From IMG/VR virus record IMGVR_UViG_2029527005_000007, positions 10,046-74,045 of that record: a stretch of DNA of 64,000 nucleotides; one strand, 5' to 3'. Positions 1,063 to 52,151 of this stretch are shown here, piece after piece; positions within the stretch are counted from its first letter, which is position 1; the number at the start of each line of letters is the position of its first letter. The translations under genes and the position numbers were made by a program. A model generated the notes under the pieces. It ran no database searches. It was not told the DNA's origin and worked only from the letters and a program-made list of their open reading frames with translations. This stretch comes from a virus.

Positions 1063-4000
1063 TTATTTCGGTATAACCGAAGGCGTGTTACTGTTTTGCT
1101 GCTTAACAACCTGAATCAGCTGCTTCAACAGCTCTTCCACACCGCCTGAACCGGCTTTCATGGCTGAGGCCAATACTTGCGGATCCAGTGGGTCTGCGGC
1201 TGGCGCTGCAGGAGCAGCAGCTGGCGGAGCCATTGGCGTGGTTGGTGCCGGAGCTTGAGCAGCGGCTGCCGCTGGCGCTGCGGCAGGAGCACTTGGTGCA
1301 GTCGTAGTCGGAGCCGGTGCGTTACCGTCCGGAGCAGCCATTGCGGCTTCTGTTGTAATACGACCCATCTGAGCCAGTGAAGCATTACCCACTGTGCGCA
1401 TGTACTTGTCAGCAGCTGCATCACTCTCGAAGTTAAAGTGAATGTGGCCGCCGGTACCGGCTGCAGTTTTAACCCGGTATTCGTTGATGACTTTGTAATC
1501 CGCTGGAGACATCCCGGCGTCACTCATCATCTTCTGTACCGTAGCAGCAGCTTGGTCAGAGGTTCCTACTCCACCTTGAATGGTGAAGTCCAATGCCAGT
1601 CCCACAGCGTGTTTACTGCGCGGGTTAGCTTTGTGGTGGTATGCGTCGTTCAATGCCGTGAAGCGAATGAAGTCTTGCACCCGTGCCTGGATCTCTTGAC
1701 ATGCACGAACGATACCTGGGTGTACAGGTCCGCCTGCGGTGGTTTCCGCGGACTTCAGCTGCAAACCCGTGTAGGTATTGGTGCGGTTACCCGAGGCCAC
1801 AGAGGTAGCGTTAGCTACGTTCTGGAACCCTGCACCTGCACCACCGTTCGGACTACCGCCACCCAGACCATAACCCGACATCGGCGGAAGCTTGCCACCA
1901 CCCAACCCAGGGTTCTGTGGAATGGAAACTTCTGTTGTGCCAACGTTAAGTGGGTTCGGTCCTGGTAGCTGCGGATCTTTACGCTGAATTGTGACTTCCT
2001 GTCCGCCGGTAGCGGCTTCAGTTTCAGCACGACCTTTTGCTGCCAGGTCATCGCCTTCTGTGCCGTCACCACCTGCCGTTAACGTACCGTTGCTCAAACG
2101 AGCCAGGTAGTCTTTGAACATGGCGAATCGCTTCTCCATGCCCGGCAGTGCATTGCCGCCGTTCAATCCGCGTGCTGCATAACCAAAGTTGTTGTTCTGC
2201 GTGATAGACTGGAGCTGTTTGTTATCCTTGATAAAGGCCACTGCCAGCTTCGCCATGACTTTAGGGTCAGTAGAGGCCAGCTGTGGATTCTTCTCAAGGT
2301 CAACACCAATCATCTTACCGAACTTACGATAGTTAGCACGACCAGTGAGTTGGATAAATCCACGCCCACGGTAATCCCAACCATCATTCTCGTTGATGTT
2401 GCCCAACGAGGCCCCTTTGGCGCCACCGTAAACAAAGTTTGCGATAGCTTGCGGACCAGCCTGTACCAGTTGCTGTGCAGTTCCCATGTCAGTGACATTA
2501 CGGAACAGCTGCATTAACCTTGCCGGGTCACGGTAACGCATATTCTCGGTGGTCTGAGTATAGCCCTGTGACTCGTAGTTGGTTAACGCCAACGCCTCAG
2601 CAATCAGGCGCGGGTCAGTTAATCCTTCCGCAATCATCTCACGGATAATCAACTGCTCGGCAGCATTGCGCGGTACATTCACCCCAGTGTCATTACCTGC
2701 AGCAGATGGTGTGACTCCACTGAGGTTGACCTTGTTGATGTCAGAACTGCCTTTGATCGGTGCGTAGGTTTGCGCAGGCATACTGAACTGCGCGTCCATT
2801 GCAAGCTCGTTACGGTTCTGAGGATTACCTCCCGCACTGAGTTTATCCGTTGCAGCTCCACCCACGGCGTGTGCAGTGGTTTGGTTCACCAACTGTTTGG
2901 CACTGGTTTGCTGGGCTTCCAGAATCGGGTTGCGCAGCTTGGCTTTGTTGCTCAGCTCCTGCAATGCATTCAACAGCTTATCGACTTCCGGCAACTTGCC
3001 AACAGAGATCCCGTTTTCAAACGGTGAAGTTTTCACACTCCAAACCGGAATAAAGGTTTTCTTCGGCGTAACGTTGCGGGTATCAATAACACCCAGTGCG
3101 ATCTGGTATTTCGCTGTTGCCGTCAAGTTCATCCAGGCACTGCCCGGTGCACCATTACCGTAGCCGTTATAGAGCTTATAGTAGTTCATAAGCACTGGCA
3201 GGAAACGATCACGGAACCACAGGCACCAGTCATCGGCTTTCTCATCTTTGATGCGGAATGCGGCTTTGAACTCGTGGAAGAGATCACCGGTTTTACCCAG
3301 GAAACGCGCATCTTTACCAATGATTTTGATCATGCCCTCAACACGGCGCTCAAGGTGAGCCACCGCCTGGAACTTCCACGTTGGGAAGAGTTCCGTGCCG
3401 TACTCTTTGCCAAAGCTCAGGGACAAGCCATAAGCGTTCATACGGATAAGGGTGAATGGATCAATAATGCCGTTGTCAGGGATCAGGTCTTTGACGTTGA
3501 CCTGTCCCGCTACTTTGCCCGGACCATAGGCGTCGTTGAGCTTACCGACTTCTTCATCGATCTCTTTGAGGCGAGACTTCGCACTGCGCTGTTCGAGATA
3601 GCTGGTTTTGCCGTCAAGCCCCCAGAAGCTGGTGTTCTTGAGTTTCTCTTGCAGCTCTTTACGCTCTTTCTCCAGACCCTCTTTGCTCTCTACCTTCATG
3701 GTCACATCGCGGACTTTTGCGGTGTTATCACTTTTATCAAGATACTTCTTCAGCTCTTGCAGGTATTTGCCCACGCTCGCTATGGTTTCGTCTTGCCCCA
3801 TGAGCTTGTCGTGTGGATCGATGCTTGGCGTCACTTGATAAGGAGAAGGCTGAATACCCGCGATCGCCTGTGACGCCTGATAGGCGATGTCATACGCCCG
3901 TTTGTCGGTGAGCTTGTCAAACTCTTCGAGGCTCTTGAGCTTCAGAGTATCCAAGCAGGACATGTACGTCAGGAACACCGGTTTAAAACGACCATTGAAC

Positions 4001-49285: not shown

Positions 49286-49438
49286 TTGAGCACCCTTACC
49301 GCGCGCTAAATCATTACTACCCATTATCTACTTTGTACAAGTCATCCCTTTAGATGATCGGGCGGGAGACAAACGCTGCTTATGTCTCTCGCTCTTTTTT
49401 ATTAGGTAATAGTAGTAGTTAGTATATTATGTTTCTCT

Positions 49439-49515
49439 TGCTCCATAGCTCAAATAGGTCGAGCGGCGCACTGTTAATGCGTAGGTTACTGGTTCGAGTC
49501 CAGTTGGAGCAGCCA
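49439..49515 (+). tRNA. tRNA-Asn (GTT)
   Basis: Acceptor TGCTCCA/TGGAGCA; anticodon arm GCGCA-CTGTTAA-TGCGT; T-loop GGTTCGAGTCC; encoded CCA. Confidence 0.93.
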
Positions 49516-49586
49516 CATTATGGAAAGGTCGCAGGCAACACGCCTGGGTGTTAACCTCAGTCTGCGGCATTTCCGCCCGATTATAT

Positions 49587-49676
49587 AGAGAGTTGGATGA
49601 GAGGCTTAAGTCGCTTCCCTGCTAAGGAAGTGTGGGATTAGTTCCACCGAGGGTTCGAATCCCTCACTCTCTGCCA
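49587..49676 (+). tRNA. tRNA-Ser (GCT)
   Basis: Acceptor AGAGAGT/ACTCTCT; anticodon arm CTTCC-CTGCTAA-GGAAG; long variable arm; GGTTCGAATCC; encoded CCA. Confidence 0.93.
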
Positions 49677-49697
49677 CATTAACGATAACGAGATATT

Positions 49698-49949
49698 ATG
49701 AAAGTCACTATCTACGGTAAAGAAGGTTGTGCGTTCTGCACTCGTGCTAAAGACCTGTGTCAGGAAAAAGCCATTGAGCACGAATATATCGACTTCATTG
49801 CAGCTGGCATGAACAAAGCTGATCTGGAAGCCGTCGTTGGTAAACCGGTTAGCACCGTTCCGCAGATCTTCGTAGATGGCGCACATATCGGCGGTTACGT
49901 TGAGCTGGCAAGCCTGGTAGCAAAACAGCAGCCGCAGGCAGCTGAGTAA
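49698..49949 (+). CDS. grx: Glutaredoxin
   Basis: GKEGCAFC active site, TVPQIFVDG..IGGY. Confidence 0.92.
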   Translation: MKVTIYGKEGCAFCTRAKDLCQEKAIEHEYIDFIAAGMNKADLEAVVGKPVSTVPQIFVDGAHIGGYVELASLVAKQQPQAAE

Positions 49950-50473
49950 TAATATGTATTTCTAGAACACTTCAATTCAAGATAAAGCGCGTACTGGCAA
50001 ATGCCACTGCAATTTGTACGGGCTACCCCTTGACGCTCATTTGAGTGGGTTCGGGTTATTGTTATTTGCGACGGTGAATTAACGATTCACAGTTTTTGAT
50101 TAACAGCCGATCTTATCGCACAGTTACTGATGAGGTTTCTTCGCTGTCGCAAACCCTATTACTTCTCCCGAAGTGATAAACTCCTTGCCTATCGGTCCGC
50201 GTAGGTCAAACAAGGATAGAATACGGGAATGGGAACTTTCACGCCCATGGCCCCAGCGGACACTATTATTTTTTACTGCAATACCAACATTTATGTAGAC
50301 AGCTGTACGTTAAGTAACTCAAATACTTACCGAACCACTGTCCCAAGTGTTTCAGCGAGTACTTTTTCACTATCCCTGCGCGAACGGGATAATACGGATT
50401 GTTATCCCATTCGATTTTATCGCGCAAAAGAATTTCAACTCTGTATTATTAAGGTGTAATGAACAAACCATTT

Positions 50474-50698
50474 TGATGGATGTCCTGTGGTCGCCCTGGC
50501 GACATGAGGTTCGGTAACAGGCGGCTCCTGCTGAGCGGCACGCGGCCTGAGCCGATCTACTAAGCGATCCCTGAGCTGGGGGTGCGATTGCCTATTGAGA
50601 GCGAATCGCATATGCGGAAGGGTAGAAGAACACTGCGGCGAGCGCCGCTGTTGAGGGTGTTCTCCCAGACTGCTAGGGCGACCTCAGGACCTTCATTG
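50474..50698. ncRNA. Candidate multibranch structured ncRNA (unidentified)
   Basis: About 25-bp closing helix plus several internal hairpins, GC-rich, no ORF. Confidence 0.55.
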
Positions 50699-51017
50699 AA
50701 AGTTCATTATCTCTCTCAAAGATAATAACAGAGTGGAATAAGGATGTTCCACAATGTTTCCAACTCACTAAAGGTAAATATGTTTTTCATAGCTTATTTA
50801 CCCTTACTGGGTAAATTTCAGTTGACGGAACAAACGATGTTCAATCTCGTGATCGCTGCGATACGAGGTTACATTATAACAGAACCTTCCAACGAGTACT
50901 CCCCAGGCTCGGAAGTCATTGCAGAACCATTCGCGCCGAAGCGAAGATCCCAAATAGCGTGGCAGCACGCCATATGGGGTTTCCGATAGATGTGCTGACT
51001 GGGGATTATAAGTTACC

Positions 51018-51060
51018 GCCTGACCGCCAAAGGCGAGTCAGGCACAACTTCTTATTTTTT
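51018..51060 (+). terminator. Terminator closing the tRNA/ncRNA region
   Basis: GCCTGAC-CGCC-AAA-GGCG-A-GTCAGGC then a T-rich tail. Confidence 0.6.
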
Positions 51061-51102
51061 GTCTTTTTAAATAATCTTTAAATCACTGTTATTTTTTCAA
51101 GT

Positions 51103-51120
51103 CTATATTACTTAGGTGAA
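51103..51120 (+). promoter_or_regulatory. Putative early promoter of phuZ
   Basis: CTATATTACTTAGGTGAA. Confidence 0.7.
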
Positions 51121-51170
51121 TGTAGTACAATAATCGTAACTTAAAGCTTTATTAACAACGGAGTAGTAAC

Positions 51171-52151
51171 ATGTCTGAACTTATGGTCATTGGTTGTGGC
51201 GGTACTGGTATCAACATCATGAAAGATGTGATCGATGCTCCCGGAACTCGCATTCTGAAAGAAGCGAAGTACCTGGCATTCGACAGTTCCGACAGCAACA
51301 GTTCTGATGGTAAATTCGAAGTGCTGCACATGAACTCGGCCAAGAACCCGGGTCAGAAAGCTCAGGGGTCTGGTAAAGATGTCACGCTGAACTTTGAAAA
51401 CCACGCGCCGTTCATTGCGGAGTCGTTCAAAGTTCACAAGCCGGGCAAGTTCTGTATTGTAATCATGTCGGCCGCTGGCGGTACCGGTTCTGGTCAGGGC
51501 TTTGCTGTTCTGCGTTATCTGCTGAGTCGCGGCATTCCTACCGTGGGCCTGTTCGTACTGGATCACACCTCTTTGGTTGAGCGTCGTAACTCTACCAAGA
51601 TCATGGTGTCGATCTCTAACCAGGTGCAAGAACGTTTCCTGGGTAAAGTCATTCCTCACATCCGTATCGTGAACGATGACCGCACCCGTCGTGAAATCAA
51701 CGACGAAGCGATCCTGAACCTGAACTACGTCAGCCTGTTCCTGACCGAGTCCAACGAAGAGCTGGACTTCGAAGATATTGCCAACGCACTGCAATACTCT
51801 AAAGTCACTGGCCTGCCGCCGGCGCTGTCTGAAATCAACTTCCTCACTGACGACGCAGTTACCAGCTACAACGGTAAACCGCCGGTGTCATTCTGCTCGA
51901 TCTTCGATCATCGCGACAACGCACGTCCACTGTTCAAAGACTCTGCGTACCGCGCGACCGGTGTTATCAATCCGGACAACAACCCGCCGAACGCCAAGAC
52001 CATCGTCATGATGCTGGATCACGGCGAAGCGGTTGAAAAACTGGAAGTGGAAATGGAAGAGCTGGAAGCTACCCAGCAGAAAGCGAAGTCTTCCTTTATT
52101 AAGCAGAAAGACCTGTCGTCTAATGCTGATGAAAGCGGTTTCGACTTCTAA
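51171..52151 (+). CDS. phuZ: Phage tubulin PhuZ
   Basis: IGCGGTGINI, tubulin signature AAGGTGSG, NDEA T7 loop, acidic-aromatic C-terminal tail. Confidence 0.92.
   Translation: MSELMVIGCGGTGINIMKDVIDAPGTRILKEAKYLAFDSSDSNSSDGKFEVLHMNSAKNPGQKAQGSGKDVTLNFENHAPFIAESFKVHKPGKFCIVIMSAAGGTGSGQGFAVLRYLLSRGIPTVGLFVLDHTSLVERRNSTKIMVSISNQVQERFLGKVIPHIRIVNDDRTRREINDEAILNLNYVSLFLTESNEELDFEDIANALQYSKVTGLPPALSEINFLTDDAVTSYNGKPPVSFCSIFDHRDNARPLFKDSAYRATGVINPDNNPPNAKTIVMMLDHGEAVEKLEVEMEELEATQQKAKSSFIKQKDLSSNADESGFDF

Follow-up and report, generated by a model that had tools for sequence, protein, structure and literature searches.

Does the GC-rich segment between a glutaredoxin gene and the gene of the PhuZ tubulin in an uncultured phage encode a functional RNA, and if so, of what kind? 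The segment lies in a window of 64,000 nucleotides (the whole stretch of DNA analysed here), which is part of a 96-kb IMG/VR viral record that is approximately 42% complete. An earlier note on this DNA had proposed an undescribed functional RNA of 225 nt, possibly an anti-defence decoy, a scaffold or a nuclear-export factor, at the core of a 1.2-kb structured-RNA region. Very little work has been done on the non-coding RNAs of nucleus-forming jumbo phages, and a 2026 review goes no further than stating that phiKZ expresses such RNAs (PMC13282480). On the + strand, two tRNA genes and the glutaredoxin gene are followed by a gap of 1.2 kb and then by phuZ:

49439-49515, + strand: tRNA-Asn gene
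49587-49676, + strand: tRNA-Ser gene
49698-49949, + strand: glutaredoxin gene, grx (Pfam E 6e-12)
51171-52151, + strand: PhuZ tubulin gene, phuZ

The nearest matches of PhuZ in cultured phages, namely the Erwinia phages RisingSun and Joad and the Shewanella phage FishSpeaker, are only approximately 40% identical, and the window is therefore assigned to an uncultured chimallivirus-type lineage. A PhuZ profile search of one genome per prokaryote species returned no match.

Within the gap, the proposed RNA and the sequences that flank it directly were resolved as follows:

50474-50698, + strand: the element, consisting of P1, P2, the P3 domain with the conserved UAUGCGGAAGG, and P4 (folds, compensation, covariance model)
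50475-50501 with 50672-50697, + strand: closing stem P1 (MFE fold)
50456-50473, + strand: predicted 5′ leader (P0/P1 pairing in the full-transcript fold)
50699-50715, + strand: 3′ trailer, paired with the leader and probably marking where the folded RNA ends (folds)

In the MFE fold of the + strand, P1 comprises 25-26 bp with two 1x1 mismatches and encloses three or four inner hairpins, arranged as the hairpins P2 and P4 and the branched domain P3. This fold reaches −110.6 kcal/mol, compared with −85.3 ± 4.8 kcal/mol for dinucleotide shuffles (z −5.24; 0 of 200 shuffles were as good), and the − strand of 50474-50698 gives −89.9 kcal/mol (z −3.8). Almost all pairings that the earlier note had listed are present where it had placed them and are used by the MFE fold. 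This holds for all three parts of the closing stem (TGATGGA/TTCATTG, GTCCTG/CAGGAC and GGTCGCCCTGGC/GCTAGGGCGACC) as well as for the inner helices TGCGATT/AATCGCA (50583-89/50604-10) and AGAACAC/GTGTTCT around GCGGC/GCCGC. One further proposal, CAGGC/GCCTG together with GCTC/GAGC, was half right: the former is in the fold, with a register that shifts in relatives, but the latter is unused. Similarly, the segment had been described as GC-rich and free of open reading frames. The GC content is indeed 0.60 compared with approximately 0.45 in the flanks, but short reading frames of 47, 56 and 58 aa overlap the element, and these are rejected as coding further below.

The extent of 50474-50698 is real, but the structure reaches further, to 50456-50710. 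Positions 50456-50464 pair with 50702-50710 (helix P0), and 50471-73 pair with 50699-701, extending P1. P0 and P1 together form a rod of approximately 38 bp in an RNA of approximately 255 nt. Folded as part of the full transcript, the element adopts the same structure.

With regards to known families, only two tRNAs passed the gathering threshold of Rfam 15 in the window. At E values up to 10 over 49900-51200, the sole match that overlaps the element was RAGATH-25 on the − strand (16.2 bits; gathering score 49), and the remaining four permissive matches fall outside the element. The elements of the other lineages described below (B-E) gave no Rfam match either. As had been supposed, the element hence matches no known family, as far as Rfam 15 covers them. 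The conserved CUAAG / UAUGCGGAAGG internal loop was also considered as an 11-nt tetraloop receptor or a kink-turn, and neither register fits.

Homologues and evidence of selection

Relatives were gathered by a PhuZ protein search, from 90% down to 49% identity, and in a second series via the small protein encoded downstream of the element. Altogether, 15 distinct homologues were found at the syntenic grx-phuZ place, distributed over five lineages of uncultured relatives:

Group A, PhuZ ~90%: six distinct sequences, including the window
Group B, PhuZ 76% and 67%: five sequences
Group C, PhuZ 68%: one sequence
Group D, PhuZ 60%: two sequences
Group E: one sequence, 351 nt long

The synteny from grx to phuZ is kept throughout the relatives, and the element occurs once in the 96-kb record, once in a 106-kb relative and once in the complete 231-kb genome of a lineage D phage. 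The sequencing runs in which relatives occur were made from samples of seed, rhizosphere and food fermentation. In cultured phages and plasmids, neither the gap nor the element had a BLAST match, and exact-pattern scans of IMG/VR added nothing beyond the contigs already found via PhuZ. So far, the element has been seen in one uncultured, apparently plant-associated clade only, and in no cultured phage. A match of an Iodobacter MAG to a 20-mer of the element core was dismissed as chance, as it lies within the coding sequence of an unrelated gene and the similarity goes no further.

BLAST detects homology of the element within group A only. A covariance model built from group A recovered the elements of group B (E 4e-7 to 4e-5) and group C (E 0.004) at their exact coordinates, on the + strand and as the top matches; on lineages D and E it was not significant (E 3-5, or no match). 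What links the elements of D and E to the others is their syntenic position, a common architecture and short motifs, and they are thus regarded as probable homologues. Aligned together with MAFFT, the lineages gave no alignment good enough to derive a single structure for all.

The earlier note had asked for compensatory changes among syntenic grx-phuZ regions, and these were found. In all 15 sequences, P1 is kept at 23-32 pairs (a closing stem of 25-35 bp), although most of its sequence differs from group to group. Across groups A-C in the model alignment, two to four pair types occur at 17 of the 25 P1 pairs, and the individual cells comprise 160 Watson-Crick, 35 G-U, 1 A-C and 4 other combinations. 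In independent folds, the outer stems contain 320 Watson-Crick, 62 G-U and 8 A-C pairs, the material for these counts being limited to the 15 sequences from one uncultured clade. As a G-U pair would read as A-C on the other strand, the asymmetry of 62 to 8 indicates an RNA of the + strand and argues against an inverted repeat that acts at the DNA level. Fold z-scores of −3.6 to −6.8 were obtained for all eight homologues tested, and the + strand was more stable than the − strand by 7.7-21.7 kcal/mol in each of the eight. Together with the + strand matches of the covariance model, this bears out the strand that had been thought likely.

Group B provides a separate line of evidence. When its members were aligned by sequence only, both sides had changed with pairing kept at 13 of the 71 predicted pairs, compared with 5.5 ± 1.7 in shuffles (0 of 500 reached 13) and 0-3 in slid controls. 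The support spans five helices, that is, P1 and four inner helices. Within group A, 4 compensatory and approximately 12 wobble-compatible pairs out of 82 all fit the fold, the sequences being too similar for more. The group A elements are 88-91% identical, compared with 53-58% at the four-fold sites of phuZ, so that purifying selection acts on the element in its entirety and not on the stem only. Unpaired positions hold more than their share of the variable columns (17/66 versus 19/160, p 0.015). The strong conservation of the interior in this group suggests that the core does more than hold a stem.

Between lineages, the interior is lineage-specific and ranges from 3 to approximately 300 nt, with the long stem always 5′ of the small gene. 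The sole recurring interior motif is UAUGCGGAAGG in groups A and B and UAUGGAAG in group D. At the short end, L016 (PhuZ 57%) has a bare AT hairpin of 19 bp with a 3-nt loop directly before the ribosome-binding site of the small gene, and L017 (PhuZ 49%) carries a long-stem element of approximately 105 nt at the same place, with an interior of approximately 60 nt. The leader and the trailer form a duplex collinear with P1 in groups A, B and C (−11.6 to −15.9 kcal/mol, z −1.8 to −5.0), and the same fold test found no collinear pairing in group E.

The predicted transcription unit and the small gene

The element is the 5′ part of a unit of approximately 600 nt, with a predicted promoter at ~50442 and a predicted terminator at ~51060. 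Its boundaries and further parts are:

50386-50408, + strand: terminator-like hairpin with a U-rich tail, upstream boundary (terminator scan, cross-lineage alignment)
50428-50461, + strand: predicted early promoter of the virion RNA polymerase type, core TGTATTAT at 50442-50449 (weight matrix)
50733-50752, + strand: predicted hairpin with a weak U-tract between the element and the small ORF (terminator scan)
50780-50989, + strand: small protein gene, 69 aa, downstream cistron of the element's unit (open frame in all lineages)
51019-51065, + strand: predicted unit terminator, a hairpin followed by a T-run (sequence; relatives' hairpins)
51104-51111, + strand: predicted phuZ early promoter core TATATTAC, next unit and downstream boundary (matrix score 43.4)

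Given its own predicted early promoter, the terminator-like hairpin upstream, and the 69-aa gene with its predicted terminator, the element is not the core of one 1.2-kb RNA. Of that earlier claim, the structured nature of the 225-nt element stands, but the gap consists of several units, and 50780-50989 encodes a protein.

The promoter was predicted with a weight matrix trained on the phuZ promoters of relatives and five other promoters of the window, the tested sites being left out. The site reached a score of 25.3 in the window, and its counterparts in L008, L012 and L011 (groups B and C) reached 28-37, compared with a 99.99th percentile of 5.0 over both window strands, on which only ten sites exceeded 10. 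It is located 25 nt 5′ of P1 and follows the pattern TTTCA ... TATATTAC-like ... TTAGGTG. This motif is the early-promoter type of phiKZ-like phages, which is attributed to the virion polymerase and centred near −10 (PMC7058600, PMC11512511, PMC7598289), and we therefore infer a start at ~50455-50456. Very probably, the element RNA is transcribed from this predicted promoter. In group D and in L017, the weight matrix found no early promoter in the 1.3 kb upstream, and regulation therefore differs among the lineages.

The predicted boundary hairpins vary likewise. The stem of the upstream hairpin at 50386-50408 compensates across lineages (GGGATAA/TTATCCC, GGGCCA/TGGCCC, GGTCAAC/GTTGGCC, GGGTCT/AGACCC), and its loop is conserved as (A/U)NGGAU with GGAU kept; it may be a terminator or a protein-binding hairpin. 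After the element, groups B and C have a canonical intrinsic terminator (e.g., L008 4538-4564, 12 bp and then T7). Group D has no terminator between the element and the small ORF, and its stem ends 8 nt before the ribosome-binding site. At the position of the unit terminator (51019-51065), every relative has a lineage-specific hairpin with a T-run.

The small protein has 69-73 aa across the relatives, its frame is open in every lineage, and indels occur in multiples of three. A hydrophobic N-terminal half is followed by an Arg-rich stretch and a C-terminal WQxAIWGFR, giving the pattern MFFIxYLP...FNLVIA...(Arg-rich)...WQxAIWGFR. In the relatives, the gene is preceded by a GGAGG ribosome-binding site. 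Searches of Pfam and PHROG gave no match, no relative was found in cultured phages, and an AlphaFold2 model showed two helices at low confidence. Helices were also observed in and around the gene itself. A hairpin at 50796-50816 pairs ATTTACCC with GGGTAAAT over codons 6-13, and its counterparts are TTTACTC/GAGTAAA in L011 and TTTACCT/AGGTAAA in L017, substitutions that alter the protein. In addition, TCCCCAG in the middle of the ORF (50900-50906) pairs with CTGGGGA just past the stop codon (50999-51005), with CCCCGTT/AACGGGG as its counterpart in group B and CCAGGA/TCCTGG in L013. In view of these compensating helices, structure seems to extend to the message of the small gene.

Regarding expression, a relative of approximately 90% identity was found in a seed metatranscriptome, with contig depths of 101 (49412-50177, tRNA-grx), 284 (50505-50998) and 680 (51134 onward, phuZ), and with no contig over 50193-50497. 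The contig with a depth of 284 runs from within the element through the small gene, where contigs of this kind carry no information on ends, strand or level. The uneven depth, and gaps that coincide with predicted unit boundaries, are in keeping with RNA more than with DNA contamination, with the caveat that in DNA-like runs, too, several contigs break there. A food-fermentation metatranscriptome also holds part of the element. With the compensatory changes, the purifying selection and a relative's copy in a metatranscriptome, the proposal of an undescribed functional structured RNA has held, and a new conserved structured RNA of the + strand, linked to the small gene both in position and in evolution, is well supported.

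Proposed role, rival explanations and known systems

Across the clade, the long stem before the small gene is constant, and we therefore read the element as the structured leader of an early unit, or as a small RNA that originates from this leader, and take the double-stranded rod to be its functional part. We hold this preferred reading with confidence and doubt in about equal measure. For cleavage, partner protein and biological role, we infer the following scheme. Transcription would start near 50455, the predicted start, and the first ~255 nt (50456-50710) would fold such that leader and trailer form the ~38 bp rod (P0 and P1). The rod would close a multibranch core that differs in size and sequence between lineages, and would be followed downstream by a hairpin, a true terminator in some lineages, and by the 69-aa gene. 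By analogy, the double-stranded rod would be the working part and the target of a double-strand-specific factor, most likely host RNase III; a phage-encoded RNase III was not found. Cleavage or binding by this factor would release or stabilise the ~255 nt RNA, and would determine the amount of downstream message that is made or translated.

RNase III stems are familiar from the R sites of T7 early mRNA, the flanks of 16S and 23S rRNA precursors and the lambda N leader. As in these systems, the flanks form a long double-stranded stem around a folded RNA or before a cistron, the stem is conserved, and phage early transcripts are concerned. Taking near-continuous double-stranded RNA of at least ~20 bp formed from the flanks as the hallmark of such stems, P1 has at least 23 pairs in 15 of 15 homologues, and P0 extends it in groups A-C. 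The T7 R sites are small hairpins with an internal loop, whereas the stem of the element closes a core of 150-300 nt and is a putative RNase III substrate.

The closest described phenomenon is that of the 5′UTR-derived small RNAs of 201phi2-1 and phiKZ, which were identified by ONT-cappable-seq and have a phage start and then a termination site shortly upstream of a coding sequence (PMC11512511). In both cases, the phages are of the chimallivirus type, a promoter and, shortly after it, a terminator (for the element by prediction) precede the coding sequence and would yield a short structured RNA as well as a read-through message, and the position is conserved among relatives. Here, the promoter score is high, and a terminator is predicted in groups B and C, with a weak hairpin in the window and none in group D. 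The small RNAs of 201phi2-1 and phiKZ are shorter than 250 nt and are simple stem-loops before a tail gene (PMC11512511). In contrast, the element has a rod of 26-38 bp, a multibranch core and a 69-aa gene next to phuZ, it shares no sequence with them, and its ends are predicted.

The main rival, which we regard as possible but rather doubtful, is a free-standing trans-acting non-coding RNA (decoy, sponge or scaffold) that is made early and ends before the small ORF, so that the adjacency would reflect shared transcription only. The element's own predicted early promoter and the canonical terminator right after it in groups B and C would suit such an RNA, as would the paired 5′ and 3′ ends, which are found in many stable RNAs. 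The same can be said of the purifying selection on the entire group A core, beyond the stem, and of the motif UAUGCGGAAGG or UAUGGAAG that is kept across lineages A, B and D. However, the interior is unconserved between lineages and is down to 3 nt in L016, which one would not expect of a core that specifically binds a protein or an RNA. Moreover, the stem in lineage D abuts the ribosome-binding site with no intervening terminator, and the metatranscriptome contig continues from the element into the ORF.

Several known stable RNAs invite comparison in this context. Like GOLLD and ROOL, with which the earlier note had compared it, the element is phage-associated and structured, and GOLLD and ROOL often lie near tRNA genes as well. 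The comparison fails on Rfam score and size: no Rfam match to these RNAs appeared at E values up to 10, GOLLD and ROOL are two to four times larger than the element, and it is the closing stem rather than an ornate core that is conserved here. Species 1 and 2 of T4 (rnaC and rnaD) are likewise small stable RNAs beside tRNA genes in a large lytic phage. They measure 139 and 119 nt and abut the tRNA cluster, rnaC having a tRNA-like T arm, whereas the element has its own predicted promoter, and its covariance model finds nothing there. Bacterial Y RNAs (YrlA) resemble the element in combining a stem of the 5′ and 3′ ends with a folded module. This candidate was rejected, as neither the partial genome nor the complete relative has a TROVE (Rsr) gene, ARAGORN reported only the two tRNAs, and no Rfam Y RNA matched; this concerns phage genomes only, and a host-encoded Rsr is possible. 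Finally, 6S RNA is an unbranched rod with a large central bubble, whereas the element folds as a three- or four-way multibranch, and no RF00013 match was obtained.

A more speculative alternative, which we consider improbable, is that the RNA and the 69-aa protein, with its arginine- and tryptophan-rich C-terminus, form an early ribonucleoprotein, or that the ~38-bp rod acts as a decoy for a bacterial double-stranded-RNA-binding factor or immune sensor in the manner of VA RNA. Like adenovirus VA RNA I, the element is viral, has a length of ~160-250 nt, paired termini that form a long stem, and a structured centre, and is associated with a nucleus-like replication compartment. Unlike the element, VA RNA has no co-transcribed gene after it, and there is no homology; the likeness is an analogy only. 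We know of no bacterial double-stranded-RNA sensor that is the target of such an RNA. If true, a ribonucleoprotein or decoy would mean that nucleus-forming phages possess a novel class of RNA for counter-defence or host takeover.

A riboswitch or attenuator leader that controls terminator read-through into the small ORF is quite unlikely. Although the order of promoter, structured domain, intrinsic terminator, ribosome-binding site and ORF in groups B and C is the classical layout, no aptamer-like core is common to the lineages, the interior is lost in L016, and no Rfam riboswitch scores. Furthermore, the rod with its 26-38 bp is much too stable for switching, the full-length fold does not show the 3′ strand of P1 pairing alternatively with the terminator, and the terminator is missing in lineage D and weak in the window.

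Still less probable is an element that acts as DNA, be it a miniature inverted-repeat mobile element, a cruciform, an origin or a recombination site. Such an element could account for long terminal inverted repeats around a non-coding interior, for the variable interior size and for the GC content of group A, which is unlike that of the flanks. It is, however, at odds with a single copy per record at a constant syntenic place, with a stem kept by compensation in which the excess of G-U over A-C (62 to 8) matters only in + strand RNA, with the better + strand fold in all eight sequences (by 7.7-21.7 kcal/mol), and with the lack of any match in phage, plasmid and genome collections. A miniature inverted-repeat transposable element in particular was rejected, as there is one copy per record and the stem sequence is unconserved yet paired. 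Least credible of all is a chance GC-rich fold or a missed protein-coding segment: reading frames of 47-58 aa do overlap the element, but the fold z-scores and the covariation speak against chance, and the 1-nt indel in L003 inside the 47-aa ORF and the absence, for each of the three ORFs, of any conservation across lineages in amino acids or nucleotides speak against coding.

The locus provides a well-delimited, covariation-supported RNA family with a predicted early promoter and a defined partner gene. Its natural interior variants (3 to ~300 nt) form a comparative series on the action of a long double-stranded leader at the very start of infection, within minutes and ahead of the phage nucleus.

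Other features of the gap

Further observations concern the gap upstream of the element and its equivalents in more distant phages. In L028 (PhuZ 41%), approximately 480 nt of GC-rich sequence with no gene obvious by eye lie upstream of the phuZ promoter, at ~2400-3000. RisingSun has a gap of 650 nt at the equivalent place, which holds only two small hypothetical ORFs on the minus strand, and in FishSpeaker an HslV-like gene abuts phuZ with no gap.

In the window, the block at 50160-50268 (CTTCTCCCGAAGTGA ... GGGAACTTTCAC ... GACACTA) is conserved in sequence between groups A and D and partly in B. It is non-coding, as the 76-aa ORF at 50229-50459 is split by an insertion in L004, and is probably another RNA element. 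L004, a close relative, carries an insertion of 364 nt (~2733-3097, equivalent to ~50268 of the window) that contains a small ORF and its own hairpin. L032 and L033 have a shorter insertion at the same point, which appears to be an insertion hot spot.

The best-conserved block of the entire gap is located at 50292-50345 and was found in all lineages, including L016. It begins with TATG of the phiKZ late-promoter type (50292-50295), followed by a hairpin, GTACGTTAAGTAA ... TACTTACCGAAC, and then by CACTGTCC; in L011 and L016, it lies immediately 3′ of a tRNA gene. Motifs of the TATG type are also present at 49422-49430 (TATATTATG, before tRNA-Asn) and at 49951-49956 (AATATG, right after the grx stop). 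Each is followed by TTTCT, both are fully conserved in group A, and they are possible late or middle starts for the tRNAs and the first part of the gap. Within the tRNA-Asn gene of a relative from a seed metatranscriptome (run X4), 28 nt at 49452-49481 are swapped for 546 other letters, which could represent an insertion or further genes in the tRNA region.
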